In this document: piece after piece, positions 5,612 through 59,460 of the stretch | Layout of the letters: each line of letters begins with the position of its first letter | Position numbering within the stretch: the first letter of the stretch is position 1 | IMG/VR virus record: IMGVR_UViG_3300037963_002318 | Location: 1-60,369 of that record | Origin: a virus | Lineage: Duplodnaviria; Caudoviricetes | DNA: 60,369 nt | Reading direction: 5' to 3' (one strand) | Translations under genes and position numbers: made by a program | Notes under the pieces: generated by a model | The model's input: the letters and a program-made list of their open reading frames with translations, nothing else | What the model was told of the DNA's origin: nothing | The model's database searches: none

Positions 5612-6835
5612 ATGGAGGCAAAAATTATGGCAGATATTGACCAAATGATTGACAGAATAAGCAAGAACATAGGCGCAAGCGAAGAAACGGTTCGCTCTCG
5701 AATGGACATCGTTCTATCCGAGAACAAGAACACTTGGCTTGATGCCGGAAAGACCGAAGATGAGTGTTCGCTGAACGCACTTAGAATTGCCGGTAGGCAG
5801 ATTAAGAGCGAGAGCGAAAGACTAAAGCGCAGTGGAGCAACACTATACGAAGGAATGTTCGTTAGCGTTCCACGCTACAAGGACTGGGCAGACTTAGCAT
5901 ACAAGAAGGCCGCAGGGACTATCTCACAAGGTATTGATACAGTGATTGATTCACTTATCGAAGAAGGTAACATTATTCTCTATGAGGATAACAACGATGG
6001 CACCTTCACCAAGAAGTATAACCCATCCTTAGCGCAGAAAGCGGATTTCGAGTCCGGTAGCGCAAGCACCGACATTGACGCACTACCCAAAGGCACATAT
6101 GATGCAGGTAATGGAATACATTTCCACCTAATTTGGGACAAGGCGAACCCAACATTCCCAAGCGGGGATGCTAATTGGAAATACGGCAAGCCAAGACCGC
6201 TAACCGAAAAGGACAGGACTTGTTTATTCTTAGGCCGCCCACAGGGCAGTAAAGACGACATGAGAATCTATTCTATGAGATTCAACGGACAGTTAGCCGA
6301 GGAGCAACACCCAACATTTGTTGCTGGCACTATCGCTATGCGACCTGCTCGTAACGGTGATGTAGCATACGGCAAGGCTGGTGTCTCAGTATTCAACCGT
6401 GACGACGCAGTGCAGGGTTCCTTCAGTGGTAGCCCGGATGCACTAATCGCTGGATTAGACCAAATCAAGACTCTTGAGAACGGTCTGCAAGACATCGAGG
6501 CGTATGTCGGCACACTATCCGACAAGGAACGCTGGGATGCTTTGGCGGCGGCTATTGTTGAAGTGATTCACATTGACCCAAGAGACAACGGTGGTTACAT
6601 TATTACTGTTGGTGACTTGGATATTATGTCCACTGCTGGCACCGTTGACATCTATGTTACTACAAAGCATGAGTCACTTGTTGACTTCGCAGTTGGTAGC
6701 ACCCTAATGGTAGTAGGTTCACCATACATGAGCCGTGATGATGAGGCTAAGTTGGCCGTCACCGGTTGGTGGTGTCACGAATCTATGGCGGCATCAGCAC
6801 CCGAGCAACTACCGGATGAAGGAGGCTGGGACTGA
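5612..6835 (+). CDS. single-stranded DNA-binding protein (RPA-like OB fold)
   Basis: C-terminal OB-like strand pattern, acidic/aromatic tail DEGGWD, position between RFC and the recombinase-like ATPase. Confidence 0.55.
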   Translation: MEAKIMADIDQMIDRISKNIGASEETVRSRMDIVLSENKNTWLDAGKTEDECSLNALRIAGRQIKSESERLKRSGATLYEGMFVSVPRYKDWADLAYKKAAGTISQGIDTVIDSLIEEGNIILYEDNNDGTFTKKYNPSLAQKADFESGSASTDIDALPKGTYDAGNGIHFHLIWDKANPTFPSGDANWKYGKPRPLTEKDRTCLFLGRPQGSKDDMRIYSMRFNGQLAEEQHPTFVAGTIAMRPARNGDVAYGKAGVSVFNRDDAVQGSFSGSPDALIAGLDQIKTLENGLQDIEAYVGTLSDKERWDALAAAIVEVIHIDPRDNGGYIITVGDLDIMSTAGTVDIYVTTKHESLVDFAVGSTLMVVGSPYMSRDDEAKLAVTGWWCHESMAASAPEQLPDEGGWD

Positions 6836-7767
6836 TGACTTGGGCAACAACCAGTGCTAAGACGGAAACTGCTCCCCGCAAAACATTTGGGGTGGAGCAT
6901 TACCGTCAACTCTTCGACCGCAAGCGAGAGGCTATGGCCCCAATTCGCATGGCGTTGGTAGGCAAGGAGAACACGGCTAAGACAGGGCTTGCCCTTGACT
7001 TAGCCCTCTCCCACACCGATAAAGAAGTAGTCATCATTGACTGTGACAACTCAGCGCAGAACACAGTGGACTACCTTATCTCGACAGGTGCCGCAGATGC
7101 AGACCGCATTCGTGTAATCCCTATCATTGATGAGTTAGATGACGCTATGTGGAATGACGACAACACTACTAACTGGATGGCAGTAGTTGACAAGATTGAG
7201 TGGTTCGCATCCTTCTTGGGTGAGTCCTCCGATAATGTAGGCGCAGTTATCTTTGATGGTGGCTCGACATTCCTAAAGTGGTGCGAGTTTGTAATGACAG
7301 ACCGACTAATCCGCCGTGGTGTTATTAACGACAGTGGCGACGGGTTCAATCAGAAGGAGTGGCGAGAGCGCAACAGTGTGTTCAAGGGTGTCCTTGACCG
7401 CTTAACTGCGCTACCAATCCCATACATCTTCTATACTTTCCACCTGAAAGACCAAAAGCAATACATGGACATTGGTGACGGCACAAAGGCACTGATGAAA
7501 GTTGGCGAGAAGGTTGATTGGGTGGATGGAACCCAGCGATTCGTGTCCCAGCAGGTATGGCTAAAGCGTTATACCAAGAAGGGTGACAAGGCGGCTGGTG
7601 TTGAGGCTGACAAGGCTCTCGCTAACGATGAGTTTGCCATTCGTGCAAAAATCGAGGAGATGAAGGGTCGTAACATGGAACACTTGGGCACTACCCATGA
7701 GGTTCTAAATGTCAAGGATAGCAAAGTCACTTGGAACGGACTACCTTTGAGGTGGAGTGATGTCTAA
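6835..7767 (+). CDS. RecA-fold/AAA_24 (Sak4-like) ATPase
   Basis: Walker A variant GKENTAKT, VIIDCD, VIFDGGS Walker B, YTFH. Confidence 0.7.
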   Translation: MTWATTSAKTETAPRKTFGVEHYRQLFDRKREAMAPIRMALVGKENTAKTGLALDLALSHTDKEVVIIDCDNSAQNTVDYLISTGAADADRIRVIPIIDELDDAMWNDDNTTNWMAVVDKIEWFASFLGESSDNVGAVIFDGGSTFLKWCEFVMTDRLIRRGVINDSGDGFNQKEWRERNSVFKGVLDRLTALPIPYIFYTFHLKDQKQYMDIGDGTKALMKVGEKVDWVDGTQRFVSQQVWLKRYTKKGDKAAGVEADKALANDEFAIRAKIEEMKGRNMEHLGTTHEVLNVKDSKVTWNGLPLRWSDV

Positions 7768-11953: not shown

Positions 11954-12256
11954 ATGGCACGAATACTTGTTGTAACAGATGATGCGGAGATTATCTCCGA
12001 AGCACTTGCTACCTATGGTCGAAGAGATGTGTATATAGCACTAGATAACACAGTTGCTAACAAGCACAAAGCGGAGGCACTTGGGATTGATAGCAGATTA
12101 AATCTTGTTGGCTCCGATGCAGACCATGACCTATTCGACACCGTTCTTGGTGGCTCAAAGAAGTCCACTAAGAAATCCGCCCCAAAGAGCAAGAAGGAAT
12201 CACTTGCTAAAGAAGTTGAGGCGGTAGTAAATGAAGAGTCCAAAAAAGTACTCTAA
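11954..12256 (+). CDS. hypothetical protein with Lys-rich tail
   Basis: ATG 11954 after GGGTGGA; Rossmann-like start ARILVVTDD. Confidence 0.5.
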   Translation: MARILVVTDDAEIISEALATYGRRDVYIALDNTVANKHKAEALGIDSRLNLVGSDADHDLFDTVLGGSKKSTKKSAPKSKKESLAKEVEAVVNEESKKVL

Positions 12257-13196
12257 GGAATGGTTCGCAATAGAAGGGCCGAATCACGGTCACTCTAACC
12301 CAATCAAAGCGTCTGCTAACGGATGGCCTGTTAGGTTATCTAAGTCGGCGTTTATGACCTATCTTGGTTGTCCCCGTAAATACTGGTGGAGTAATGTAGC
12401 CGAGATTCGCACACCGCAGAATCACTACATGGCTCATGGTACAGGAGTCCATAGGGCCTTAGAAAATCTATATGGCAATTGGAAAGAAGGATGGCACGAC
12501 GAAACCTTTGAAGAATTGGGTGTTGTTGATTGGGAGGATGGTTCAATCCACCAGCCTCATTTACAGTGGAATAAAGACCAACAACAGGTCTATTCTGATT
12601 CGCTAATTTCACTTTTTCAATTGGAAAATGAGAGATTAGAGCGTTGGGGCGAGGAACATTTTGCTCCTGTTGAGTTTGAAATTAAACATGTTGTTAATCA
12701 TCCCGATTCTAATTTCCTATTGGTCGGCAAGATTGACGGTGTTCATAGACACCCCAATGGCGGTCTTGTAATTACTGAATTGAAAACAGGAAAAGCAACT
12801 AAGGGCAAATTGACTAAGACTCGCAAGGAGTTATGTTTCTATCGCCATATGCTATCCCTATTAGGATTCGATGAGGCAGTGTATTTCTATTACCTGTTCC
12901 CCGAGGCTACTAACACCGACTTGTATCTCGAATTAGAGGGCAAGAAGGACACTGAAGTTTGGCTTGGTGAGAAGCAGGGTATGGCGGTGCTTGAGAAGGT
13001 ATCGAAGCGTTCAGTTAACGCTATGCACAAGTCCTTAGATAAGGCTATTGAGGGTATCAATGGCGACCTATGGGGTATGAAGTGGAATGACTACTTCTGC
13101 ACTGAATGGTGTGAGTTTTCAATGTCATGTGAAGGTCAAATGGTTGGGTTAGATGATGACCCAACACTTTCATATAGTGGAGAAGAAGAGTGGTAG
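12231..13196 (+). CDS. Cas4/AddB-like PD-(D/E)XK exonuclease with Fe-S cysteines
   Basis: LSKS...CPRKYW, GKIDG, ELKTG, C-terminal CTEWCEFSMSC. Confidence 0.85.
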   Translation: MKSPKKYSKEWFAIEGPNHGHSNPIKASANGWPVRLSKSAFMTYLGCPRKYWWSNVAEIRTPQNHYMAHGTGVHRALENLYGNWKEGWHDETFEELGVVDWEDGSIHQPHLQWNKDQQQVYSDSLISLFQLENERLERWGEEHFAPVEFEIKHVVNHPDSNFLLVGKIDGVHRHPNGGLVITELKTGKATKGKLTKTRKELCFYRHMLSLLGFDEAVYFYYLFPEATNTDLYLELEGKKDTEVWLGEKQGMAVLEKVSKRSVNAMHKSLDKAIEGINGDLWGMKWNDYFCTEWCEFSMSCEGQMVGLDDDPTLSYSGEEEW

Positions 13197-40190: not shown

Positions 40191-41708
40191 TCACAACCTA
40201 ACATATTTGCTTGATGATGGTCTGCGTTTATTAGTTTTTGGGTTCTTTTTATTCTTAGACCAGCCACCCATGCTGGTTGTTTTGGAAATCATAGGCATTT
40301 GGTCGTTTTGTTTTGGTTTGAATTGGTCTATTGCGTGTGCCAAAGCCATAACAGTATCGTTATGTTTGCCGACATCAACAATCTCGCCGTTTTTCCAAAC
40401 ATGCGCCTCTAACTCATCGAGAATAATGTTGACTTTTTTCCGAGTAGCGTCATCCCCATAGGGGAATACTACTAACTTGCGCTCAAACCAAACTCGCAAG
40501 CGATTCATTAGACCTTGCTTGAGTCCTTTGTTGGATGCTTTGGATGGGCGATAGTCCAAATGTCCCCCCTTTTGCTCTATGACTGTTTGATATAGTCGCT
40601 GAAAACCTACATCTTCAGCCGCAACGGGGGCACCATAATGTTTAGCCCACTCAATAATTGTGTCTGCTTGCCTGTCCGGCGGAAAATCATTTTTGCGCCA
40701 CATATCAACAAAATGAATATACCCCTGTTCATCTTGACGCAAACATATTAAGACGGAGTAATCTTTGCCTATACCATGAGCAGGGTCGAAACCGAGGATG
40801 AAACGGGAACCATCGTGGAGTTGACTGTCGAAACCACTAATGGCTCCTATGTCTATGTGTTCTCGGATGAGGTGCCTGTTGAAAACTTGGGAGTCATCAT
40901 CCACGACCTTGCACAAATACTCCTGTGCGAAAGCGAGGTCATCGTCTATGCTGATTTTTTGTTCCAGCAAAAACTCGGTGGGTCTAAACTCGGGCCACAG
41001 TGGCAGTAGTGGGATATTATCGGGGTCGGCTCTATGCTCATCCCAATTAGGAAATGCAGACCAAACGCCGGATTTCCAAACCTGCTTTGCTTTTTCGGAT
41101 AGCATTTCAGTATGATATAGGTCGGTGTGGGACATTGGTGTGCCTACACAAAATAATGATGTGCCGGGGTCAAGCATAGGAGTTACTACCTTCTTGAACC
41201 ATTCTGATACTGAGTCCATAGTCATGTCACCCATTTCAGCGAGAACATCATCGAGTGCTACTACCGCAGGGTGTTCTCCACGAATAGCGGAACCCACACC
41301 TGTTGCTTGAATCCAAGCACCGTTAGTAAATTGAATCCTTTGTTTGTTAGAACGCTTTTCATCAAGATACTTTCGTAATTCGGGGTGACGGCGCATATCC
41401 GTTTTGATTTCCTCAAGACGGTTTGTAGCCTGTCGTATGCTGGCTGAGAATAGCCATACTTCAATAGGTTGCCCGTGTCTTTGCTCGAATAGACACATAT
41501 GCAGTAGTTTTACTCGAAGAGTAGCCGACTTGCTATGGGAGCGAGGGGCAATAATACAGACACGGTGGACTTGGGCACCTTTGCGGTTGCCGTATAATTC
41601 CATCCACTCATCTATGTGGTCTGCCCACTTGTATTCGGGTGAGAGCCATTCATAGAAATGTTTGATGTCATGGCGTGAACGCTCGAAGTTGAAGTTGGGC
41701 ATTACCAT
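40191..41708 (-). CDS. terL: terminase large subunit
   Basis: APRSHSKS Walker A, LDDV Walker B, VGTP, FAQEY, GFDPA and HNDTVMALA nuclease motifs. Confidence 0.93.
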   Translation of the reverse strand: MVMPNFNFERSRHDIKHFYEWLSPEYKWADHIDEWMELYGNRKGAQVHRVCIIAPRSHSKSATLRVKLLHMCLFEQRHGQPIEVWLFSASIRQATNRLEEIKTDMRRHPELRKYLDEKRSNKQRIQFTNGAWIQATGVGSAIRGEHPAVVALDDVLAEMGDMTMDSVSEWFKKVVTPMLDPGTSLFCVGTPMSHTDLYHTEMLSEKAKQVWKSGVWSAFPNWDEHRADPDNIPLLPLWPEFRPTEFLLEQKISIDDDLAFAQEYLCKVVDDDSQVFNRHLIREHIDIGAISGFDSQLHDGSRFILGFDPAHGIGKDYSVLICLRQDEQGYIHFVDMWRKNDFPPDRQADTIIEWAKHYGAPVAAEDVGFQRLYQTVIEQKGGHLDYRPSKASNKGLKQGLMNRLRVWFERKLVVFPYGDDATRKKVNIILDELEAHVWKNGEIVDVGKHNDTVMALAHAIDQFKPKQNDQMPMISKTTSMGGWSKNKKNPKTNKRRPSSSKYVRL

Positions 41709-41854
41709 TATCGCACCACCCTCATGTTACCACAATAAACTGTGCGTTTTTGTTTTGGGCACCATTTGGTGCATGAAGTGTAACAAGCGTTTGCTTCACG
41801 ACCACAGTTGTTACATTTGCGTAACTTTCTATGGAATCTGTGTCCTCCAGCCAT
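41708..41854 (-). CDS. small Cys-rich zinc-finger protein (48 aa, not in ORF track)
   Basis: MAGGHRFHRKLRKCNNC...YCGNMRVVR; TAATG coupling to terminase. Confidence 0.5.
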   Translation of the reverse strand: MAGGHRFHRKLRKCNNCGREANACYTSCTKWCPKQKRTVYCGNMRVVR

Positions 41855-41856: not shown

Positions 41857-43224
41857 TTATTCCTCATGGACTACTGGTGCGAATAGAGAACCGATGTAGC
41901 CCTCCTTTTCGTCAATTAGATATGCGGCCAAACCTGCGGTGCTAGTAGTGTAACCTGCTCTTGCGTGGTATCTGTCGTGACCTGCAAGGGATGGCATCTG
42001 CACAATTAGGCATCCGTCTTTTTCGGTTAAGCGTTGGTGGTGAAGGTGTCCGTGGAACCATACTCTATGGTCGGTCTGTCCCCACTGCTTCTTTGCTTCG
42101 TTAGCCATTAGACCAGCAAGGCTATTGGTCTTTTTAAGTCCGTCACCGTGGGTGAATCCAAGCAGTGTTGAACCGTACACTAGGTAACGGCGGTTAAAGG
42201 AGGATATGGTAATTGTGACATCATTACAACCTTCGTATGCCGCAGATAGATACATCATCAGTGCGATAGTGGAATGGCGGTCGTGATTGCCAGCCATCAT
42301 TACTACTTCGACAGGTGCGATTTGTCGCATCAAGTCAATGTGTTCTCGGGCCAACTTGCATCCGGTAATAAGGATTTCAGCAGGGGAGCCGCACATATCT
42401 TGCAGGGTTCCCTTAGTAGTAGTACCTTGGTCGTTATCAACATGGAACCAATCGGAGCCAGCACCTACATAGATTTTTTCGGGAGCAGATGGGATTCTGC
42501 TAACAAGGCTTTCGGTCTTTTCCATTAGACGCTTTCGTGCCTCCTCGAAGTTGTATGTTTCACCTACTTCATCCTCCCAGCCGTGTTTTCCCCAGTGGAA
42601 ATCGGTAGGACATACTACTAGGGCGTATGGTGAAGGAGCCACAGGTAATTTTAGTTTCGGCACTTTGGATGCGGCTTTTGGTAGGTCTTTGAGATAGTTT
42701 AGTTTCCACTCAAGGTCACGCCACTTGACCGCATCTTCTTCGAGAGCCTTGCGTTCACGCTTGTATATTTCCTGTGCGGCGTTGTGTTTGCGCTGGGATA
42801 ACAAGTCGTCAATGTGTTGCTCGGGTTCATCCAGCAGTTGTTCGTTAGATAGCGGGACTGTGGAGTGCGTAACCTTGTGCGCTCTTTTCCAAGCCAAGAA
42901 GTGTTCAACTGGCATATCGTATTTGAGTGCCATTTCGGAGGCGGTCAACGGGGTGCCGTCAAAACCGGAGTAGTCACGGAGCATGGCTCGGTGCTTTTCG
43001 CCGGACATGCTGATGTCCCCAAAAGTGAGGGCCGTAATGTATGTGTCGGAGGACTCGTCGTAGGAGTATGAATCGTCTTTTACTTCGCTCTCGTAATTGA
43101 TTAGGCGCATCTCCCACGCCTTCACTGTTGAGTCGGGGTAGTATTGGTTTAGTAGTCGTGCGTAGCCGATTCTGCTACCGGGGTGTTCATCCATGTGCTT
43201 TAGTATCGTGTCTTGATGGGACAT
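41857..43224 (-). CDS. calcineurin-like metallophosphoesterase with N-terminal HTH
   Basis: DFHWG, GSDWFH, GNHD, THGD, GHLHH motifs. Confidence 0.85.
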   Translation of the reverse strand: MSHQDTILKHMDEHPGSRIGYARLLNQYYPDSTVKAWEMRLINYESEVKDDSYSYDESSDTYITALTFGDISMSGEKHRAMLRDYSGFDGTPLTASEMALKYDMPVEHFLAWKRAHKVTHSTVPLSNEQLLDEPEQHIDDLLSQRKHNAAQEIYKRERKALEEDAVKWRDLEWKLNYLKDLPKAASKVPKLKLPVAPSPYALVVCPTDFHWGKHGWEDEVGETYNFEEARKRLMEKTESLVSRIPSAPEKIYVGAGSDWFHVDNDQGTTTKGTLQDMCGSPAEILITGCKLAREHIDLMRQIAPVEVVMMAGNHDRHSTIALMMYLSAAYEGCNDVTITISSFNRRYLVYGSTLLGFTHGDGLKKTNSLAGLMANEAKKQWGQTDHRVWFHGHLHHQRLTEKDGCLIVQMPSLAGHDRYHARAGYTTSTAGLAAYLIDEKEGYIGSLFAPVVHEE

Positions 43225-43394
43225 TAGTTATTGGGTGTGCCCGCCAGTTTATCAATGTTTTCCAAAAAAAAAAATCAAAAAAACGCATGGTGCTTGGCTG
43301 TCCCTATATGTATGATAGATGTGATTTTTGGCGACTCGCCTATTAGTAAAAACAGGGCAGTTTTTTGTGATGCCCAGCACTAGAGATTCTCGAC

Positions 43395-43604
43395 TCAATT
43401 TCTCAAGTCAAGAATCCACTGCGGAGCGTCTGAAGTACCCCAATTGTACGGCAGTACTTCAAACGGTACACAGCACCCAAATCCAAGGTTGGTCTTGGTT
43501 GCTAGTTTTTCTCCTACTATCTTCAGTGTACCACATCTGATACACCTAATCATGTTCGTTTTGTACATCTCTTTCCATTCTTTGTTACTCATCATTTTCA
43601 TCAC
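43395..43604 (-). CDS. small Cys-containing hypothetical protein
   Basis: CIRC motif; coupled to the upstream ORF. Confidence 0.4.
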   Translation of the reverse strand: MMKMMSNKEWKEMYKTNMIRCIRCGTLKIVGEKLATKTNLGFGCCVPFEVLPYNWGTSDAPQWILDLRN

Positions 43605-43741
43605 TCATCTTCTTGGTTATACTCATGCTGTGTGCAATCTAAATCATGACCGTGGTCTAGTTTAGCATTACATTCTTCACATCTATCACAAGTGCATTCA
43701 TCAATTAGTTGGAAGCAATCTTCGCATGATTCCTCAGTCAT
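43601..43741 (-). CDS. small acidic Cys/His-rich protein (46 aa, not in ORF track)
   Basis: MTEESCEDCFQLIDECTCDRCEEC...; GAGG RBS upstream. Confidence 0.45.
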   Translation of the reverse strand: MTEESCEDCFQLIDECTCDRCEECNAKLDHGHDLDCTQHEYNQEDE

Positions 43742-43744
43742 TCT

Positions 43745-44149
43745 TCATGCCTCCTCAAATTGTTGGAATGTGGTGTCTGTGTTATCACACTCAATCTCAT
43801 AGACTAATCGTGGCGGTAGTTTCGCTTTAGGTGCCAAGTCGCTTGGACTGTTCAAGTTGTAGTCAATTGGTGGCAGGTTATCCCACTGAATTGATGTGTC
43901 CTTCTTTGTCTCCCTTGCCTTCTTCAGCATATCATCTAGTGTATGCTCATGCTTGGTAACAATGATGTCAAACCATCCCTCGCCATCATCTTCGATTGTC
44001 CAATCAATAGCGAATGCGTGGCAGTATTCGCACCAGCACTCCTCTCCTGTTCTGTCTGTTATCCAGTGATGTTCACCTTCTCCGCATGTATCGTTATTAT
44101 CTCCGACCATGCACCGACGACCACACCACCCCTTATCAATACTCCTCAC
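43745..44149 (-). CDS. acidic hypothetical protein with Cys/His cluster
   Basis: C..H...CWCEYC; likely start is ATG 44110. Confidence 0.5.
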   Translation of the reverse strand: MRSIDKGWCGRRCMVGDNNDTCGEGEHHWITDRTGEECWCEYCHAFAIDWTIEDDGEGWFDIIVTKHEHTLDDMLKKARETKKDTSIQWDNLPPIDYNLNSPSDLAPKAKLPPRLVYEIECDNTDTTFQQFEEA

Positions 44150-44217
44150 ATATGCACCACATATCCAGCGATTTCAAGACCTAATCCAAATCACCACGAA
44201 ATCATATAATCATCATA

Positions 44218-44278
44218 TATCAGTAAGGTACTGCCCCCGGCTCAGTAAATAGAGAGAGAGAAAGAGAAAAAGAGAGAG
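44218..44278 (+). repeat. cassette-boundary element copy 1
   Basis: TATCAGTAAGGTACTGC...CTCAGTAAAT followed by a purine (GA)n tract. Confidence 0.85.
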
Positions 44279-44309
44279 CCCCCCAGTGGAGCGAACTCCA
44301 CTGAGGGGC
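44278..44309 (-). terminator. GC-rich UUCG hairpin followed by a (UC)n tract on the minus strand
   Basis: Minus strand reads GCCCCTCAGTGGAG-TTCG-CTCCACTGGGGGGC, downstream of ORF 44352..44672. Confidence 0.6.
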
Positions 44310-44351
44310 AGATTACTGAGATTTCAGTTATACAAATCCAGCCCAATTGAT

Positions 44352-44672
44352 TCAATTGTTGTTTATGATTGCATCCAAGGCGTTTCTTGTTCGCTCATGG
44401 TCGATGAGTGTTGCATTCTCATATGCGACCAATACTGCACTAAACTCCTTGCTATGGCTACATAGGTATTGTGCGGTGTTCTTCTGCATCATGCCGTACT
44501 TCTCCTTCACATATCCTACATTGGTATGATTGAACAAGTTTGCATATACAGCATAGAATGTGTGAAAATACACATTGAAAACACACCTACCTATTCTGTC
44601 TATATCTTGTGGTACTATTGTCATAATTATCACCTCCTTGTTTGACGCTTCATTCATCCTAATATCTGCCAT
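44352..44672 (-). CDS. hypothetical cassette protein
   Basis: Main ORF between elements 1 and 2, with its own TATA (TATATATA near 44743-44750). Confidence 0.55.
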   Translation of the reverse strand: MADIRMNEASNKEVIIMTIVPQDIDRIGRCVFNVYFHTFYAVYANLFNHTNVGYVKEKYGMMQKNTAQYLCSHSKEFSAVLVAYENATLIDHERTRNALDAIINNN

Positions 44673-44797
44673 TACGCTTCGCCTCTTGATTCACTTCATC
44701 CTCTATCTGATTTCCGTATTGGTCATACTAACAGGTAGGTTGTATATATACCCTTCTCGAAATCATCATCAAAATGCTCATTCAATATTTCAACAGG

Positions 44798-44858
44798 TAT
44801 TAGTAAGGGTACTGCTCCGACTCATAAATAGAGAGAGAAAGAGAAAGAGAGAGAGAGA
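44798..44858 (+). repeat. cassette-boundary element copy 2
   Basis: TATTAGTAAGGGTACTGCTC...CTCATAAAT followed by (GA)n. Confidence 0.85.
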
Positions 44859-44860
44859 CA

Positions 44861-44876
44861 GGGGGCCGAAGCCCCC
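44861..44876 (-). terminator. UUCG hairpin followed by a (UC)n tract on the minus strand
   Basis: GGGGGC-TTCG-GCCCCC downstream of ORF 44900..45271. Confidence 0.55.
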
Positions 44877-44899
44877 CGCCCCTCGGATTTCTGATTTGC

Positions 44900-45271
44900 T
44901 CAGATGATGTCGCCAAACAGGTCTGCAAGGTAGTACGAGATTGATGCCCTGCCTGCTTCATCTGCTTGGTTGTATTCCTCCAGCATGTTCTTCTGATTTG
45001 CTCGATACTGTGTCAGCCATTCTTCAGCATCTCTCATCAGTGATTCGGGGGATTCTCTCAAAATCCAATCCATATCACAGTCTCTCAGAACCTTCTCCAG
45101 CACATTTACTGCCTCAGTTTTCAGTGGTGTTTCTATGTTATCAGCCTCTCTCAGCACAATTGCATGTGCCTTGGTTGCCTCGTGTATGCTTTCTGCAATT
45201 GCAGTTACCAGCATCATTACCATGATGTTGGTTCTGTCAAACGCTTTTCTGCCTATATTTCCGGTGTCCAT
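44900..45271 (-). CDS. hypothetical helical cassette protein
   Basis: Only sizeable ORF between elements 2 and 3; upstream TTTAATAGGGGG promoter and GAGG RBS. Confidence 0.6.
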   Translation of the reverse strand: MDTGNIGRKAFDRTNIMVMMLVTAIAESIHEATKAHAIVLREADNIETPLKTEAVNVLEKVLRDCDMDWILRESPESLMRDAEEWLTQYRANQKNMLEEYNQADEAGRASISYYLADLFGDII

Positions 45272-45345
45272 TTTGGTCGCCTCATGTTACCCGACATGGT
45301 TCCCCCTATTAAACCCAGCGATTCAGACAATCAATAGTTATTGTA

Positions 45346-45399
45346 TGTTAGTAATACTTCCCCTTCGTCTCAGTAAGAAAAAGAGAGAGAGAGAGAGAG
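45346..45399 (+). repeat. cassette-boundary element copy 3
   Basis: TGTTAGTAATACT...CTCAGTAAG followed by (GA)n. Confidence 0.8.
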
Positions 45400-45615
45400 T
45401 TAATCGTGGTACTGCGTGGCATTTTTGATTTTCCACGGCTGGCCGTGAAATCCAACCGTGACTTGATATACTACCACCTGCTCGTCGGTGTATATCCGGG
45501 CAACGATAACCGACAATCAGCAATTACACGAAAATTGGTTTGACAGGTGGTCTGGAACGAAACTGGTAACAGAACGGGGAGCAACCCCGATGTCAAAAGC
45601 AGGAGATGTTTGTCC

Positions 45616-46326
45616 ATGAGCCCAGCGTGGTATGTCATGCAGACAAACATGATTAACGGAAAGGAGGAAACAGTTGGACTGTTGCGTCGAACCATCAACA
45701 ATTTGTTGATGCTAGTTGCAACTATGTTGGGTTACCAACAACCAACTGCGACCTTAGTGAGCAAGATGAAGGAACTAGACCACCTGTACACTGAGTACTT
45801 GGGTCACTGTGCAACCGACTGGATTGGATTCAATCCACCCAGCAAGCGAACACAAACCCTGCTACGAAACAAGTGGATGAAAACCATGAACCAACTAGCC
45901 AAGCAAATAATGAAGGAACTTGTCAAAATCGACTGTTCCTACTGTGGACTTGGTAATGTGTCCGAGAGTGACAAATGCTCCGGCCGAAAGGTCGGTAGTG
46001 GATTTGAAGTCCACGAATGGCAGAAGTCACCAAAGGCACCGAGAGTCTGGGTTGTTGACCAAGAAGCACACTACAATAGTGAGTGGATATGGGTTGACGA
46101 AACCGGACACTATGAGTGGGGCCAACTATACCTACCTGCACAGGGCAACTGTGCAATAGGTCACGGGCCCTACGAAGGTTCAGATAGACCAATGCACAAC
46201 GCACTGGCACATCTTGACAGCGAAGCAGCACAACTGGTGCTAAAGCACTTGGAATACGGCGAAGTACCTCGCCGAGTCCGAGTGGCACTAAACGAACTGG
46301 CCGAGTACGAAACTCGAACAGTTTGA
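45616..46326 (+). CDS. hypothetical cassette protein with CxxC...C motif
   Basis: In-frame ATG 45616 after an AGGAG RBS (track start 45547); CSYC...KC. Confidence 0.6.
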   Translation: MSPAWYVMQTNMINGKEETVGLLRRTINNLLMLVATMLGYQQPTATLVSKMKELDHLYTEYLGHCATDWIGFNPPSKRTQTLLRNKWMKTMNQLAKQIMKELVKIDCSYCGLGNVSESDKCSGRKVGSGFEVHEWQKSPKAPRVWVVDQEAHYNSEWIWVDETGHYEWGQLYLPAQGNCAIGHGPYEGSDRPMHNALAHLDSEAAQLVLKHLEYGEVPRRVRVALNELAEYETRTV

Positions 46327-46370
46327 TACTGAAACAGGCAACAAGTTTGCACCGATTTCGGTTATTTGCC

Positions 46371-46463
46371 CTCCCCAGCACTTCGGTGCTGGGGAGTGGC
46401 TCCTTTTCGGGGTGTCCGAGACGAAGAAGTCCGGGCACCCCACCTTTTTTCATTATTTTTTTA
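46371..46463 (+). terminator. double hairpin plus T tract
   Basis: CTCCCCAGCAC-TTCG-GTGCTGGGGAG (46371-46396), GGGGTGTCCG/CGGGCACCCC (46409-46441), then T runs. Confidence 0.65.
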
Positions 46464-46473
46464 TTTGAACATA

Positions 46474-46535
46474 TATTAGTAAGGGTACTGCTCGCATTCA
46501 GTAAAAAAGAGAGAGAGAGAGAGAGAAGAGAGAGA
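46474..46535 (+). repeat. cassette-boundary element copy 4
   Basis: TATTAGTAAGGGTACTGCTC (20 nt identical to copy 2)...TTCAGTAAA followed by (GA)n. Confidence 0.85.
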
Positions 46536-46551
46536 TGCGGCTTTCATTTTT

Positions 46552-46992
46552 TCAATTTACTCCCTCCAAGAACATATCATAGGTGAAAGTCTGAGGAGGG
46601 AATACTCCATGTTTCTCTAAGTATAGGGCCTGCTCGGCCGTTTCAATGTGTAGTATTTGCTTCAATGTATCAAGGCCGAGTATATCGCATATTTCGCCTT
46701 GAATCCTTGAGGCTTTCAATTCACCCTCTAAAGTGAAAGGGCAATCGTATTTTAGGTGTATAGTGTCATGTAATGCCCTAAATAGGATATTGAAGGGCGC
46801 ACTTCCCCATATGGTTGAATGACTCTCCCCTCCCCAAATCGGCATAGGTAACATTTTGTTATATGCCTCGATGACGGGCTCAAATCCCATATCCTCAATT
46901 GTGACATAGAAGGGATAGACCCCGACATAATCACAGACCTTGAGAAGTCCGTTTTGTATTGCTTGCTTTAATTCGGTAGGTATTGCGACCAT
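46552..46992 (-). CDS. putative metal-binding protein with N..FRAxHDxxH motif
   Basis: FNILFRALHDTIHL...FTLEGE; own TATA and GGAGG RBS. Confidence 0.6.
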   Translation of the reverse strand: MVAIPTELKQAIQNGLLKVCDYVGVYPFYVTIEDMGFEPVIEAYNKMLPMPIWGGESHSTIWGSAPFNILFRALHDTIHLKYDCPFTLEGELKASRIQGEICDILGLDTLKQILHIETAEQALYLEKHGVFPPQTFTYDMFLEGVN

Positions 46993-47058
46993 GTACCTCC
47001 CACGCTACCCCACTATATGAACCCAGCGTTTCAACAAATAGCCAATGAATCAAGTATA

Positions 47059-47124
<66 letters not shown>

Positions 47125-47125
47125 C

Positions 47126-47158
47126 CCTATCATGAACGGTTTTACCTATCATGAACGG
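47126..47158 (+). repeat. tandem 14-bp direct repeat CCTATCATGAACGG
   Basis: Exact copies at 47126 and 47145. Confidence 0.85.
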
Positions 47159-47251
47159 GCCGCCGACCCCCTCTCGGCGGGTGTTTTTTGACCCCCTTGA
47201 GTATTTAAGCAACCGAACATGTTCGTTAATTCTTTAAGGCAAACGGGGTTA

Positions 47252-47770
47252 TTCGGAAATTGCCCGCAAGGGCCGAAGCAATCGGAAACGAATCGGGGGG
47301 GGCGACCTCTCCAAGTCGGCACTCACAAGACTTGGAGACACTAACCCACGGCTCCCGACAAATCTAGCAAGTGATTTCCAAGAGGGTCGCACTCAATCAG
47401 AACACCAAACACAGTGGGATTGAGTCGCCTCAAGGATTCATGGCCTCAACTCCATAGGAGAGGGTCAATCAGAATCAGATGACGGGCTTGCAGGGCGGTC
47501 GAGAGGCCGACAAATGTGCTGGTTTGGCATTACCTTCGGGTGAAAGTGTTCCATGATGCCAAAACACCAGCATAAAGCCACGATGAGGGGGCGTTCTGCC
47601 TATCCGAATCGAGAGCGATTCATTCACTAGGATGGACTCAAAATCGTTTGAGCCCTAGTGACTTTGAGATAAACTAAATCGTGGCCGTTCGTTTTACACA
47701 ATCCTATTCACACTAGATTGAGGAGATGCAATTCGATGATTCAATCAATCCAACTCCCTTGCCCCTACTG
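47252..47770 (+). ncRNA. candidate large structured RNA (unknown family)
   Basis: No ORF in the track; many long stems and GNRA/UUCG tetraloops on the + strand; TATA-like TTTAAG at ~47195 and ~47233. Confidence 0.55.
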
Positions 47771-47804
47771 ATACGGGGAAACACAAGGCGAGGAGCGTGA
47801 AACA

Positions 47805-50327
47805 ATGCAAACAACAACAACAACAGGAAACATGCTACTAGACCTGTTAGTGTGCATCTTGGCACTACTGCCAATTATGATGCCACTACTAGCGGTTCTA
47901 GCGGTACGACGAAACGAACGAATGAACATGCGAATAGGTCTTGAGATTGAAGCAATCAAGAAGGCCCACATTCGTGAGTCACCACATGAGAAGATGGCAC
48001 ACTGGATAATGAAGTGTGACGAGAAGATGTTGAAACTAATGTCTCCCCGTACACGGAAAACCATCCGTGCCCTCAAAGTCTCATTCCGTGGTTACACTCA
48101 CGAAGTCATGGATGAAACCAAGATTGTCACAGACTCATCATTGAGTCGTGGCGGCTTTGAGATTGTGTCACCCCCACTCATGGGGCGTGGTGTAATCATG
48201 TCGTGGATTAGTCGAATGATGTCACATCTTCGTGGTGTGGCTGAAGTCGATAGGTCATGCGGCCTTCATGTCCATGTGGGTCTGAAGGACTACGGAGCAA
48301 GGGCAAATAGAATCGAATTAGGCTTTACCGAGCCTACCGAGGGACTTGGCCCCGAAGACTACGCCAAGGCCATTACTGGTCGAGTTGCGTGGGCCTACGG
48401 GTATTTCCAATATGCAATCAATCTGATTGTCAGCCCAAGCCGCCGAAACGGCGAATGGAGCCGTGATGTGTCCTACATCAGCCGCCAATATAGCAACCCG
48501 AGTGAAGTCCGCTTCCCTCAGCGAAAATGGGATGATGAACACGGAATGTATATCCGTGAATGGCACACTGAAACCGACCCTGCAAAGGTCGGCATGGTGT
48601 TCTATGACCGACTGTACGAAGGTAACCCCGACTACGGTGACTCCCGCTATCAGTGCGTAAATCCTCAATCACTGCCGAAGTACGGTACGATTGAGTTTAG
48701 AGCGCACCAAGGCACTACGAACGCAACCAAGATTCAGAATTGGGTGCAATTCTTGCACCTACTGGTCAGCCGTTGTGCTAGTAACTATTGGACAGACATC
48801 ACCAACTTCCGTGGTGACTCAATTCATGACCTATTCACTTGGCTTGGTTTGGCAGACGATGACCCACTCTATGTGGCTATGGTTCGCCGTATCAAGGCAC
48901 TGAATGGTAACAACCCTAGCGTATTCCGCAACGACCCAATCTTGGCACACAACGCACTCTTCAAGGAGAGCGTAACATGCTCCCGATGTGGTTCGGCTTC
49001 TTGTGACTCAGACGAAGTGTGTGGCACTAATTACACACAGGATTTGATGGAGGAAACCGAGGCTCACTTCTTGGACTTGGATAGGTCATGCGACACATGT
49101 GGCACATCACTTCGGGAAACCGAAGCACACATGCGCTACAACTACGGTGACTACCACGAAGCACACTGCCCCGAGTGTCGTGACATGAGGGTGTTCAACG
49201 CTATGGGAGGAGTCATCCTCTCAGTCATGCTTGGCACCCTACCACTGGCACTAGTTATCGTAGGGTGTGGAATTGGTGCCATACATGCGGCGGCTAAGAC
49301 CTTCAAGTCCAAGCGATTGTCAACTAGACTGTTCAAGGCATTATCAGCCCGAGGCAAGCAAGCATCGGGCTTCGCCTTTGAGAACGGGAAGGGAGTGTAT
49401 TTTGTGAAAGCACCACACTCCTCAATCGCTATGGCTCACCATGTACCGAAGCAACTACGGAAACAAACCCAATGGTCAATGTTTCACACCCGCTTCGCCA
49501 CTCATGGTGCCAACAACAAAGCAAATGCTCACCCTCACTTTGGTCGCAAGGCTAAGGTGACGCTGGTTCACAACGGCGTGGTTCACAACCACGACGATGT
49601 ATGGATGGCGTTAGGCGAGAAGCCTACGGGCCCTGTGGACTCACAGGCCGTGGCACAGTGCTTAGAAGTTGGTGGAATTGAGAAGGTAGTCGAGTTATGC
49701 AAGGGCTCAATGTCCTTGATTTGGTCAGACAGTCGTGACCCGCAAGGTACTCTCAAGTGCTGGACTAATGGAGGCAATCCACTAGTCATGGGTCGCATAG
49801 ACGACAAGGCAACCGGCCCCGTAGTAATTGCTTCAACTGAGGCACTTCTCAAGGAGGGTTGCGGCAAGCGTCTCAAGACACATTGGGATGCAACCATCGG
49901 GCGTGAGTACACAATCTCGCCTACCGGTAGCATCAGCCGCCGTGACATCGAAGGCAGTGAAGCCACTGCCGGAGTTGTCTATGACTGGCGTACCTACAAA
50001 GTCGATGACTTTTACTACACCTACGGTAGCAACTACTCGACTACCAAGACCAAGAAGCGACACCTACCTTATCGCATCAAACAGATGGCGAAGAAGGAGT
50101 TGGAGCGACTTGGTAGTTGGGAGCCAATCGAAGGCAAATGGGATGGCTTCGACCTGCACACTTTCAGTGGCATTCATGCCGCTAAGTGGGATGAGTCGGG
50201 CAAGCCCTTGACCTACGCACTGCCGCAATACATCAACCCGATGCACTACGACAGTGACCTTGAGGAAATACTCATGGGGTCGCACAGACCCGATGAGTTG
50301 GACTCATGCACCTATGAGGCCCCTTGA
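47805..50327 (+). CDS. amidoligase (COOH-NH2 ligase, Amidoligase_2-like) fused to class II glutamine amidotransferase
   Basis: IGLEIE, DSSL..FEIVSPPL, SCGLHVHVG, RY..VN, GTIEFR; then CGIG, RG..ASG, HTRFATHG, AHPH, HNGVV, VDS. Confidence 0.85.
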   Translation: MQTTTTTGNMLLDLLVCILALLPIMMPLLAVLAVRRNERMNMRIGLEIEAIKKAHIRESPHEKMAHWIMKCDEKMLKLMSPRTRKTIRALKVSFRGYTHEVMDETKIVTDSSLSRGGFEIVSPPLMGRGVIMSWISRMMSHLRGVAEVDRSCGLHVHVGLKDYGARANRIELGFTEPTEGLGPEDYAKAITGRVAWAYGYFQYAINLIVSPSRRNGEWSRDVSYISRQYSNPSEVRFPQRKWDDEHGMYIREWHTETDPAKVGMVFYDRLYEGNPDYGDSRYQCVNPQSLPKYGTIEFRAHQGTTNATKIQNWVQFLHLLVSRCASNYWTDITNFRGDSIHDLFTWLGLADDDPLYVAMVRRIKALNGNNPSVFRNDPILAHNALFKESVTCSRCGSASCDSDEVCGTNYTQDLMEETEAHFLDLDRSCDTCGTSLRETEAHMRYNYGDYHEAHCPECRDMRVFNAMGGVILSVMLGTLPLALVIVGCGIGAIHAAAKTFKSKRLSTRLFKALSARGKQASGFAFENGKGVYFVKAPHSSIAMAHHVPKQLRKQTQWSMFHTRFATHGANNKANAHPHFGRKAKVTLVHNGVVHNHDDVWMALGEKPTGPVDSQAVAQCLEVGGIEKVVELCKGSMSLIWSDSRDPQGTLKCWTNGGNPLVMGRIDDKATGPVVIASTEALLKEGCGKRLKTHWDATIGREYTISPTGSISRRDIEGSEATAGVVYDWRTYKVDDFYYTYGSNYSTTKTKKRHLPYRIKQMAKKELERLGSWEPIEGKWDGFDLHTFSGIHAAKWDESGKPLTYALPQYINPMHYDSDLEEILMGSHRPDELDSCTYEAP

Positions 50328-50624
50328 GCCAAGTGTTCATTCGTGACAACACAACATACGATTTTGTTTGAAACAACAATATCGAAGCCGAATGGCGGGG
50401 GTGTTCGCACCCCCGTCATTCTCCCCCTGTTAGCATACACACTCCTCTCCTATCACAATCACATTTACCACGCTCCTCAATCGAGGGCGAGCCGCCTAGA
50501 CAAGTGCGGGGTACCAAGTCGGTCTTCACTGGAGTTTTCTTCTCACTCCTTCTCCAGTGATTTTGGGGTGTCGAGGCCCGTTCATAGCCTCGGCATCCCT
50601 CCCACTCCCTTGGAGGCATACACC

Positions 50625-50867
50625 ATGAGCGACAAACCGACCATGAAGAAGTGCAACCACATCGAGTGCGGCGGCAAATTGCAACCGCATTCAATCGACT
50701 CGGCAACGGGTACGCTGGACTGTGATGGCCCATGCTCCCCCCGCCGTGTCCAAATGTGGCGTGATGCACTGAGCAAGCAACCAACCGAGCAACCCAAACC
50801 TAAACCGGTCTATCAAGGGCCGGTTACAAAGGAGGTTTGGGAGGACTTGTGTTACTGGAAACAGTGA
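50625..50867 (+). CDS. small Cys-containing protein
   Basis: ATG 50625 after GGAGG; C..IEC...CDGPC. Confidence 0.5.
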   Translation: MSDKPTMKKCNHIECGGKLQPHSIDSATGTLDCDGPCSPRRVQMWRDALSKQPTEQPKPKPVYQGPVTKEVWEDLCYWKQ

Positions 50868-50973
50868 ATGCACAGTCCACTCGACTAGAGGGTGGCGGTG
50901 GCCTACAACCCACCCCCTCAGATGGCATGAGGTAGCCAAACCGGACTGAGTGACAACCGGCAAACACACAAAT

Positions 50974-51042
50974 GGGGCCGGCCTTCGGGCCGGCTCCAAA
51001 TATGTGTTATTTTTTTTATTTTTTTATTTTTTTTATTTTTTT
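50974..51042 (+). terminator. UUCG hairpin plus long T-rich tract
   Basis: GGGGCCGGCC-TTCG-GGCCGGCTCC, then repeated T7-8A units. Confidence 0.7.
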
Positions 51043-51048
51043 AGTTTA

Positions 51049-51282
51049 TATTAGTAAGACGATAGTCTTATTGAATAAAAGAGAGAGAGAGAAAGTTGAG
51101 AGAGAAAGAGAGAGAGAAGTAAAGAGAGAAAGGGGGAGAGAGAGCATTAGTAAGACGAGAGAGAGAGGTGCGTGTGAGAGAGAGAAGAGTTATATAGTGG
51201 AGAGAGAGAAGTCTTAGTAAGACGAATGAGTGGGCGAGAGAGTGCCTATGAAAAAGCCTTAGTAAGACGAAAAGAAGGAAAA
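51049..51282 (+). repeat. boundary element copy 6 expanded into four TTAGTAAGACG iterons in purine-rich DNA
   Basis: Exact TTAGTAAGACG at 51051, 51147, 51214 and 51259, separated by GA-rich tracts. Confidence 0.85.
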
Positions 51283-51580
51283 GGTTATAACGAAAGAGAG
51301 GCTAAACGGTGTACTGAGAGCCTGTCGAGAGAATAGAGAGCCAAAAAAACTGTCAATGCGTATGGAATGGAGTAGGTAAATCAGGTGTTTCCAGCAACAC
51401 CTACTGTTGTCTGCTACCCTCGATATTCAAGTAACAACTCCGGCAAAAATCAGACTATCCGGCAGTGCCAGCCGACACACCCACAACGCCAGCCGAAACC
51501 TGCACCGCTAAATGCACCCCTGCTCGGCCATTCACCTATCAACATTCATATACTCACCACCGATTCTTGCCACCACCAAC

Positions 51581-51604
51581 TTGATATACCGGCGGCCCCA
51601 TATA
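51581..51604 (+). promoter_or_regulatory. early-type promoter motif copy
   Basis: TTGATATACCGGCGGCCCCATATA upstream of 51627. Confidence 0.55.
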
Positions 51605-51626
51605 CTAACCAACGGAGGCAACCAAC

Positions 51627-51866
51627 ATGGTAACGAAACAACAACTACAAAACATGCTTGACGAAACGATTGAAGAATTACAGAAGCCCACATCTGAAGG
51701 CGGCCCTATGGGCCAGCGATTTAGGCAACTGCTATTTCACAGGGCCAACTTGGAAATGAAACTGAGGGACTTGGAAAAACCCGAGCCGGAGGAAAACCCA
51801 TACCAAAAATACTACGACCACGCAAGGGAGTATTACTCAGAAGAATCAGAGGAGTTGTTCTCATGA
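51627..51866 (+). CDS. hypothetical protein
   Basis: GGAGG RBS and promoter upstream. Confidence 0.6.
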   Translation: MVTKQQLQNMLDETIEELQKPTSEGGPMGQRFRQLLFHRANLEMKLRDLEKPEPEENPYQKYYDHAREYYSEESEELFS

Positions 51867-52009
51867 AGTGGCTAACATGCCCCGATTGCAGTTGGAAAGT
51901 GTGTGTCGCTGATACGACTACGACCATAGACCCATGCGATTGTGCGTGTGGTGCTGAAAGCATAAACCCATACAACGGAACCAAGCAATACAAGGAGGAT
52001 TCAGCATGA
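51863..52009 (+). CDS. small zinc-ribbon protein (48 aa, not in ORF track)
   Basis: MKWLTCPDC...CDCACG; ATGA coupling. Confidence 0.5.
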   Translation: MKWLTCPDCSWKVCVADTTTTIDPCDCACGAESINPYNGTKQYKEDSA

Positions 52010-52116
52010 AGATTAGAGTGCCTACGCCGATTTGGTGCGCTTGGCTGGTCTTGACCCTGCCAATCGCCGTAATCAACCTACTGCTCTATATCACAGGTGT
52101 CGTTGAGGTCGGCAAC

Positions 52117-52140
52117 TATAAATAGGGGCGGCCCCATTAA
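52117..52140 (+). promoter_or_regulatory. early-type promoter motif copy
   Basis: TATAAATAGGGGCGGCCCCATTAA. Confidence 0.65.
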
Positions 52141-52168
52141 CAGACTGAAGCAACCGGAGAGGAGCAAC

Positions 52169-52330
52169 ATGGAATACAACAGAAAAAACAACGGACAATT
52201 CGACACCCCACAAAAGGTGTCATACCAATGCGAAGAATGCAATCACCAGCATATCGGATTTGAGATACACGGAATGAGAATAACCTGCCCCGAATGCGGA
52301 TTCTCATTCGTCATAGGACAGGAGGAATAA
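52169..52330 (+). CDS. small zinc-ribbon protein
   Basis: CEEC...CPEC; AGGAG RBS before ATG 52169. Confidence 0.6.
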   Translation: MEYNRKNNGQFDTPQKVSYQCEECNHQHIGFEIHGMRITCPECGFSFVIGQEE

Positions 52331-52332
52331 AA

Positions 52333-52515
52333 ATGGTAAAAACATACACAATAAACATAACATACGAAGCAACACTGACGACCGAAGAAAACTACACCGA
52401 GGAGGACATCGAGAATGGCCTTTGGTTAGGCGACCTTGAGATAGGAACGCTTGGCTACAACCGTGTAATCAGCATCCGTGGAGATGCGGTGGACTACGAG
52501 ATACAGGAGGAATGA
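52333..52515 (+). CDS. small acidic hypothetical protein
   Basis: GGAGG RBS before ATG 52333. Confidence 0.55.
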   Translation: MVKTYTINITYEATLTTEENYTEEDIENGLWLGDLEIGTLGYNRVISIRGDAVDYEIQEE

Positions 52516-52518
52516 AGA

Positions 52519-53013
52519 ATGAGAACGACAAGGGAATACGGAATTGAAGCAAGAATAATACTGAAAAAATTAGAAGATGCGGGGTGCAAGTTAGTAAAGA
52601 CTGGTTGCTCATATACGAGCGACGGCTACTACGACATCTCATGCGAGGGTCTGACTCTCGGTGAAATCGCATACAACCTATGGAATCTTGAGGACTCACT
52701 GCTACATATCATCAACCCCGATGGCAAAAAAGCATGGGCAAGATTCATCTTCGGCAACGGCTGGGGCGAATTGGTGGCTGACTACTCAGTGAACCTACTC
52801 GGCACAGGTTTGCCATACGAAGAGGCACGAAAGCGTGAGCGAGAAGTAGGAATATGGGACTACTACGACTGGAGCATCAATGATGTGCTGAAGTTTTTCG
52901 GAACATCAGTTTCATTCACCAGCATCATCGACGAAGCGATGAATATAAATAGGGGGAGCCCCCTTATAGAAAATGAGGCCGACTCAGAAACCGGACACAC
53001 ACAGGAGGAATAA
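52519..53013 (+). CDS. hypothetical protein
   Basis: GGAGG RBS; FIFGNGWGELVADYS motif. Confidence 0.6.
   Translation: MRTTREYGIEARIILKKLEDAGCKLVKTGCSYTSDGYYDISCEGLTLGEIAYNLWNLEDSLLHIINPDGKKAWARFIFGNGWGELVADYSVNLLGTGLPYEEARKREREVGIWDYYDWSINDVLKFFGTSVSFTSIIDEAMNINRGSPLIENEADSETGHTQEE
52944..52968 (+). promoter_or_regulatory. early-type promoter motif copy
   Basis: TATAAATAGGGGGAGCCCCCTTATA inside the 3' end of the 52519 ORF, upstream of 53016. Confidence 0.6.
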
Positions 53014-53015
53014 GA

Positions 53016-54269: not shown

Positions 54270-54472
54270 TGACCGACATGAGAGGAATTGCTGGCGTGTG
54301 GATTGACCTACATGGCCGCAAGGTATTCAAGCACAAGATTGACAACACTCAGTATATGCCATGCGAACACCCAGCCGTTGAGGCTGGTGTCACAGAAGAG
54401 TCGCATTGGTATCTGATGATTGAAACTGATGGCCGGACTTGGCTTTGGGATGGATGGATTACGGAGGGCTGA
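54266..54472 (+). CDS. hypothetical protein
   Basis: ATGA coupling. Confidence 0.5.
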   Translation: MMTDMRGIAGVWIDLHGRKVFKHKIDNTQYMPCEHPAVEAGVTEESHWYLMIETDGRTWLWDGWITEG

Positions 54473-54578
54473 AGATGTATTGGGGAACCGCATACTCGCA
54501 GGTCAAGCAAGCATTCAAGTGCCGCAGGTGCGGCGAGATTGGATTGCGATACGCACATGAAAAATGCGATTGCCAAAG

Positions 54579-54602
54579 TATAAATAGGGGCAACCCCTAT
54601 AT
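54579..54602 (+). promoter_or_regulatory. early-type promoter motif copy
   Basis: TATAAATAGGGGCAACCCCTATAT (palindrome ATAGGGG-CAA-CCCCTAT). Confidence 0.65.
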
Positions 54603-54622
54603 CAAATCGGAGCAGTGATACA

Positions 54623-55695: not shown

Positions 55696-55705
55696 ACCGG
55701 CATCG

Positions 55706-55728: not shown

Positions 55729-55745
55729 CAAAATGAGGATTTGAT

Positions 55746-59453: not shown

Positions 59454-59460
59454 CTTTGAC

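Follow-up and report, generated by a model that had tools for sequence, protein, structure and literature searches.

What does a repeated sequence element do in a viral genome when all its copies face the same way and the genes between them lie on either strand? The question is raised by a 60,369-nt genome of a tailed virus (Duplodnaviria; Caudoviricetes; IMG/VR record IMGVR_UViG_3300037963_002318), hereafter called the window, in which a linker made of a short box and a GA tract recurs between small genes from position 44218 onward. The original prediction, made from the sequence letters, had offered two readings: an integron-like capture and shuffling of cassettes, or polar protein-binding signals at a genome end. 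By comparing the locus with its relatives we found that the array lies between two fixed genes, that the linker is co-oriented clade-wide, and that whole cassettes sit in different slots in different genomes. Judged from these genomes, cassettes are demonstrably gained, lost, swapped, and reordered between related viruses. The reading we consider reasonably probable is a platform for accessory genes, belonging to a group C-like magrovirus, where gain, loss, and reordering would be homology-directed and would take place at a polar linker, likely a protein-binding site copied from the right-end cluster.

The linker and the array it bounds

All six copies (44218, 44798, 45346, 46474, 47059, and 51049, plus strand) lie exactly where they had been predicted, and the directions given for the enclosed genes (-,-,+,-,+) are correct. 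The linker layout is an AT leader, an AGTAAG/TAGTCTT-type box, a spacer of 15-25 nt, and a GA tract. The array, with its open reading frames (ORFs), is as follows.

41857..43224, minus strand: calcineurin-like phosphoesterase/exonuclease beside the terminase, fixed left anchor
44218..44278, plus strand: element 1, with AT leader, (T/C)AGTAAG box, spacer, and GA tract; recombinant of elements 1 and 2 of the related locus L001 at a 22-nt exact match
44278..44797, minus strand: cassette B, with UUCG hairpin 44278-44309, ORF 44352-44624, and promoter near 44744
44798..44858, plus strand: element 2
44853..45345, minus strand: cassette x, with UUCG hairpin 44853-44884, ORF 44900-45271 (123 aa), and TATA near 45310
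45346..45399, plus strand: element 3
45400..46473, plus strand: cassette D, with ORF 45616-46326 (236 aa) and a hairpin and T-tract end
46474..46535, plus strand: element 4, between two convergent 3' ends
46536..47058, minus strand: cassette E, with ORF 46552-46992 (146 aa, phrog_7806, function unassigned) and TATA near 47012, no hairpin
47059..47124, plus strand: element 5
47126..47158, no strand: two CCTATCATGAACGG near-palindromes, in perfect palindrome form in L015, L025, L030, and L130
47235..47720, plus strand: structured non-coding leader before the amidoligase (z -4.1, 0/100 shuffles)
47805..50327, plus strand: amidoligase-glutamine amidotransferase fusion, 840 aa (PF12224 and PF13522), fixed right anchor
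50625..51045, plus strand: small ORF 50625-50867, UUCG hairpin 50973-50998, and T-tract
51049..51300, plus strand: element 6 and dense terminal cluster, with four TTAGTAAGAC boxes interleaved with GA boxes

The box TTAGTAAG occurs seven times forward and never in reverse in the window, and with the sixth copy begins a dense cluster that includes three further such boxes (51147, 51214, and 51259). The composite pattern AGTAA-N12-40-GAGAGAGA gave 11 matches, all on the plus strand, against 0.06 expected, a count that none of 100 shuffles reached. Long GA tracts are confined to the array, as predicted: all nine plus-strand purine runs of at least 16 nt lie within 44251-51284, the sole minus-strand run being one of 16 nt at 18871. 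A hidden Markov model built from the six box-and-spacer parts recovered, in 10 genomes searched, these six copies, another six in the nearest relative, and no others. Another search pattern was discarded, six of its 12 matches falling in the window's clade and six being unrelated. The element DNA had no match in 50,697 phage records, an Rfam scan of 43000-60369 returned nothing at E up to 1, and a sigma70 promoter scan was uninformative (11 found, 11.0 expected).

Some finer points of the prediction held only in part. The second CAGTAA half-site is exact in four of the six copies (22, 22, 22, and 25 nt on) and inexact in the other two. The fifth interval, of 3.9 kb, holds two ORFs behind the structured leader and serves as a fixed anchor rather than a mobile cassette. 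The cassette at 46552-46992 has no hairpin, and the lone core at 43341 is retained at that place in only three of the 17 sequences displayed.

The near-palindromes at 47126-47158 are likely an operator. Operator-like CCTATCATGA(A/T)(C/A)GG boxes, which in the window occupy this interval, were seen in 18 loci, duplicates included; they mostly precede the amidoligase and are placed elsewhere in L015, L029, and L123. The leader at 47235-47720 is a mosaic that is replaced in relatives; it is common with L003 at 77% and has no Rfam match. Searches with single cassette proteins or with the amidoligase retrieved one locus each, and cassette E had four homologues; such single-protein searches are too narrow to show the origin of the cassette genes.

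Cassettes sit in different slots in related viruses

Relatives' loci were anchored on the phosphoesterase; 161 were examined, of which 65 were non-redundant with at least 2 kb upstream. In 38, the gene order is that of the window or the portal is out of view, and 37 of these carry at least two forward GA boxes, the 38 together holding 250 forward versus 8 reverse boxes; the exception, L124, has a shorter GA box in its sequence. In the other 27, the anchor and the terminase lie in inverse orientation to the portal, without any forward GA box upstream. The amidoligase closes the array in all 36 loci with at least 5 kb upstream (duplicates and window included). The box drifts by lineage, being AGTAAG near the window and TAGTCTT..TAGG, ATTAAGT, or GTCTTACGC further off.

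Sister lineages hold other boxes in the same zone. TTAGTCG occurs 46 times in a 6.6-kb zone of G007 versus five times elsewhere, and AGCCTCAT, AGGTCTCC, CTCGAAAA..TCGTGCAG, and GCAGATCT are iterated beyond the terminase in others, the iteration being slight in several of 37 loci. In L068 (14900-20960), L073 (15100-20900), and, beyond the terminase, L153 and L173, lineage-specific boxes recur at 0.5-1.3 kb spacing around small ORFs; these zones are probably parallel cassette arrays. Dense TAGTCG(CGACTA) clusters whose polarity switches mid-cluster were observed at L050 (14900-18000) and L048 (14700-16500), where the terminase is inverted. TAGTC was tried as a core common to the sister lineages and dropped, since it occurs five times in the window's zone and 46 times elsewhere, which is no enrichment; it is nevertheless seen in more distant GA-group loci.

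The window and L001, whose anchors are 99% identical, differ by one cassette lost, one gained, and one ORF swapped within a kept promoter/terminator frame. The junction of the lost cassette is a 22-nt exact match common to two L001 linkers. L001 lacks cassette x, and the junction lies in the AT leader/box. For cassette B (90 aa, or 106 aa from an upstream ATG), L001 has another ORF within the same promoter/terminator frame and L004 has the same ORF. We then compared 11 loci chosen for closeness, with cassettes assigned to families by hand. Cassette D was found in nine of them at differing slots, and edge-to-edge cassettes occupy different slots in L003.c4 and L097.c1 (98%), L003.c5 and L098.c4 (97%), and L004.c2 and L007.c3 (91%). 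Of 13 cassette pairs each present in at least two loci, three are in discordant order, without inversion, and 10 are concordant. Identical orders recur in separate records (L001, L095, and L096; L002, L099, and L100; the window and L094), which may or may not be independent samples.

Content and order thus vary between relatives, in line with the predicted capture and shuffling, and the junctions are enriched at the element. Among seven close genomes, 20 of 42 ends of high-identity blocks fall in linkers, which make up 18% of the length, and six in ORF interiors, which make up 47% of the zone; at looser cut-offs, the counts are 24 and 16 of 62. The expectation that breakpoints lie at the element therefore stands as an enrichment, but they are scattered, with no fixed point. 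Crossovers map to AGTAA (L003e5/L097e1), inside the GA tract (L002e5/L098e4 and L003e1/L097e0), at the promoter GATT (L003e6/L098e5 and L002e6/L098e6), beyond the hairpin (L002e2/L098e5), and at start codons, so that some junctions lie in shared promoter, start-codon, or terminator blocks.

How the exchange may work and what the linker may be for

The longest exact match between linker copies within one genome is 17-31 nt (24 in the window). Exact matches of 16-31 nt within homeologous linkers of 60-90 nt could be paired by the viral RadA/Sak4-like ATPase together with SSB and the exonuclease. If co-infecting genomes then exchanged DNA while misaligned, deletions, insertions, and order changes without inversion would result, as they would by an alternative route, the loop-out of a circle and its re-entry. 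Probable catalysts would be the P-loop ATPase (6835), the product of the SSB-like gene (5612), and the exonuclease (12231), the last a candidate for end resection. The genes concerned here and below are the following.

5612 (start): SSB-like gene
6835..7767, plus strand: P-loop ATPase, likely RadA/Sak4-like recombinase (weak AAA_25/CbiA matches; Walker A seen)
12231..13196, plus strand: PD-(D/E)XK (Cas4-like) exonuclease (PF12705)
40191..41708, minus strand: terminase large subunit

Integrons have an IntI integrase, attC hairpins, and a fixed crossover, and they hold single-gene cassettes in direct-repeat sites that are reordered without inversion. The window's array resembles them in its single-gene cassettes, direct-repeat sites, gain and loss, and reordering without inversion. 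A site-specific system, with a host recombinase (e.g., of the Xer type) acting on the AGTA..TACT dyad, would also fit the several junctions at or just left of AGTAA. Nevertheless, as had been predicted, no integrase or resolvase was recovered: PF00589 and PF00239 were found in none of five viral genomes (host genomes were not searched), while controls were detected in 14/14 and 12/14 cases, and no tyrosine-recombinase integrase was among the 43 ORFs screened. Five of the six copies fold no better than shuffles on either strand (z -1.4 to +1.1), the sixth having a short stem (z about -3). Moreover, crossovers lie at no fewer than four positions, the cassettes carry their own promoters, and the box drifts between lineages, unlike a site for one host enzyme. 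With no integrase, no attC-type hairpin, and scattered crossovers, the array is not an integron, and "integron-like" describes its outcome only. The same three observations indicate homology-directed exchange, and we hold a site-specific system to be very unlikely. An assembly artefact, in which GA repeats misjoin cassettes, would agree with contigs that often break at linkers and with orders seen in one assembly only. It is hardly credible in view of the shortness of the within-genome matches, the same orders in separate records, the 2-11% divergence of the moved cassettes, and public-run contigs of two studies, of which X3 and X4 bridge copies 1 and 3 and X1, possibly from the window's own run, spans copies 1-5.

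Two further explanations concern the function of the linker. It could be a plain regulatory linker of the promoter-early stem-loop (PeSL) type, its minus-strand TC tract acting as a polar terminator for leftward transcripts that shields the late packaging operon and its box as an upstream site for the promoter of the next cassette, with shuffling as a by-product. The majority of cassettes lie on the minus strand, with a hairpin and a TC/T tract at their ends, and without this tract cassette E would lack a terminator. In the 15 elements that showed the pattern, promoter and box are 18-35 nt apart, and in L048 and L050 early TATA boxes on one strand or the other have a box ahead of them. However, the box-promoter distance varies, and element 4, between convergent 3' ends, has no promoter on either side, which argues against a promoter role; the linker is not simply a promoter part. 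Nor is it simply a terminator, because plus-strand genes end in a hairpin and T-tract instead. Reverse boxes are rare, and the dense cluster and the palindromes are left unexplained, making this explanation unlikely, though worth keeping in mind. Shuffling could also be driven by the terminase, the linkers being weak copies of the packaging cut site at which occasional cuts at cassette borders are rejoined by the viral recombinase. Strict polarity, array units that copy the unit of the terminal cluster, a zone that stays beside the terminase gene even when that gene is inverted, and an end repeat in G009 (see below) speak for this, while the crossovers are spread out and no small terminase subunit was identified; we find it distinctly improbable. 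About as doubtful is a version in which the linkers would be satellite genome-end sites and the array an integrase-free capture platform powered by the packaging machine, with the box re-evolving in each group C lineage.

Under the reading of a homology-directed platform, the linker may, less securely, also be under selection as the site where a viral protein binds at the genome end, acting in packaging or entry. A role of this kind would account for the strict polarity, for the dense cluster, and for motifs that turn over by lineage. The predicted genome-end function remains plausible, although the evidence on the terminus itself is weak. In L021, L025, and L117, the terminal cluster has a TAGTCTTAAGACT palindrome, GGGAGAG at a distance of 20-30 nt from it, and next a AAAGTCCAA-like word; the array linkers repeat this unit. 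An inverted GA box at the left flank of the palindrome in L021 and L013 gives the whole the appearance of a symmetric site for protein binding. In G009, an end repeat of 390 nt starts 5 nt from the last palindrome; its copies differ at seven sites, and its length is within the 271-739 bp of halovirus terminal repeats (PMC3950731). We did not accept it as a physical terminal repeat because a comparable imperfect end overlap of 430 nt, with 11 differences, lies within a tail gene in G003, which means that such overlaps can be assembly products. No end repeats were found in the 60,369-nt window.

We also noted a GGTAGG(T) word kept 130-170 nt to the right of the terminal cluster (window 51350-51400; L003, L025, L117, L126, and L142) and, on the reverse strand of L025 (980-1230), a small ORF between the amidoligase and the terminal cluster that in our own reading resembles a double ribbon-helix-helix protein. 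A 101-aa ORF at 58382 was set aside as a candidate, being winged-helix-like (best E 0.01) with no link to the box.

Several observations weigh against the favoured reading or its parts. Sixteen of the 42 block ends are found at the edges of ORFs or in intergenic DNA outside the linkers, and the linker is therefore not the sole exchange site. The enrichment p-values (about 1e-5 and 1e-4) are nominal, since each junction is counted from both genomes and the block ends are not independent. The evidence for discordant order comes in part from loci seen in one assembly each (L003, L097, L098, and L006), and contigs of four runs, in which repeats are partly skipped and rare forms dropped, held no excised circle or joint at a linker. 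In the sister loci L048 and L050, box orientation follows that of the promoters, a pattern that speaks for transcription control at these loci and against a role in packaging alone. Across 13 loci, the contig ends beyond the cluster are spread between +23 and +4226 nt, just one of 12 early-side contigs starts at the cluster, and the terminus was not located. No protein that binds the box was identified: a 210-aa core protein taken as a candidate (ORF 1744-2376, plus strand; CxxC..H..H, helical body, acidic tail; 207 homologues), a possible small terminase subunit by its layout only, was set aside, its model having a pTM of 0.34 and no informative match to a solved fold. Finally, the host assignment is based on gene content only.

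Known systems, the virus, and what the array means

The closest parallels are the PeSL cassettes of the T4-type phages RB49 and phi1 (PMC2839356). There too, repeated intergenic linkers flank ORFans in a plastic region, gains, losses, and replacements map to the linkers, no integrase is involved, and the cassettes bring their own promoter and terminator; mini-circles were demonstrated by inverse PCR. PeSL itself is a sigma70 promoter plus a stem-loop, whereas the core of the window's linker is a box plus GA tract kept in one orientation whatever the gene direction, and it recurs as a dense cluster. Promoter and stem-loop flank this core in minus-strand cassettes and are absent at element 4. 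The array works like T4-type PeSL linker shuffling and lies outside the PeSL definition.

The claim that archaeal viruses offer no described equivalent was too strong, since PeSL-like motifs have been proposed to shuffle genes in the tailed halovirus HGTV-1, where a repeated motif precedes many ORFs (PMC3950731). That motif is a TATA-like region plus inverted repeat, unlike our linker, and shuffling was suggested there from resemblance, whereas here it is shown by relatives. Similarly, the class I/II repeats of the tailed halovirus HF2 are intergenic elements of about 60 bp with conserved motifs; they were shown to be promoters, keep corresponding positions across relatives, and are not described, in the part of the source available, as polar GA linkers bounding mobile cassettes (PMC8707807). 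The main texts of PMC5434244 and PMC10160649 do not contain the word "repeat", and no account of this element was found in the literature, supplements and subscription papers lying outside the scope; related work includes PMC11706807, PMC13108676, PMC10160649, and bioRxiv 10.1101/619684. New here are a linker that is neither promoter nor stem-loop, that is polar whatever the gene direction, and that copies the unit of a dense right-end cluster, and sister lineages that hold different iterated boxes in the same zone.

The window, rated 100% complete by CheckV, encodes PolB, a clamp loader, PD-(D/E)XK and ERCC4 nucleases, tail, portal, and terminase proteins, the calcineurin-like phosphoesterase adjoining the terminase, and the amidoligase-GATase fusion; the labels MCM, primase, clamp, and SSB are our own reading of the sequences. 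Its closest cultured PolB relatives are those of haloviruses (best 24.5%, in a phage collection without group C reference genomes). Group C magroviruses have PolB, clamp loader, MCM-like, primase-like, and RadA-like genes, no ligase having been found, and carry a phosphoesterase/exonuclease gene in the structural module; a RadA-like ATPase is reported in all magroviruses (PMC5434244). The window likewise combines an archaeal-type replisome lacking ligase with an exonuclease-like phosphoesterase in the structural module. Its gene content therefore fits a group C-like magrovirus, and from this fit the host is likely to be marine archaea of the Poseidoniales. A genome-collection search gave one chance hit and one viral contig in a bacterial metagenome-assembled genome, and no host link; the latter, L174, is a 61-kb contig of the window's virus clade inside an Opitutales bin and is likely mis-binned.

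Elsewhere in the window, a 48-aa Cys-rich ORF (41708-41854, minus strand) between the phosphoesterase and the terminase was matched in nine of nine genomes compared, and a GNAT acetyltransferase gene (37725-38201, minus strand) differs in location among related genomes or goes undetected. An early promoter with a GGGG..CCCC dyad directly after the TATA box (family D4/D5) is repeated at 52117, 52944, 54579, 55705, and 57132; this early-region motif is closer to the classical PeSL type. The interval 59447-59719, upstream of the MCM-like gene, is non-coding and AT-rich and contains a long, imperfect inverted repeat (arms of 109 nt; z -6.3 for the DNA fold), a candidate replication origin or structured RNA. 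A tRNA scan found none.

Comparative evidence from wild genomes thus indicates that abundant marine archaeal viruses keep a dedicated slot system for accessory genes, which had otherwise only been suggested, for HGTV-1 (PMC3950731). For an uncultured host group, the array supplies a list of genes likely to serve in host takeover or counter-defence, and the linker's strict polarity, terminal-cluster copying, and lineage-specific turnover point to a viral DNA-binding protein yet to be identified.

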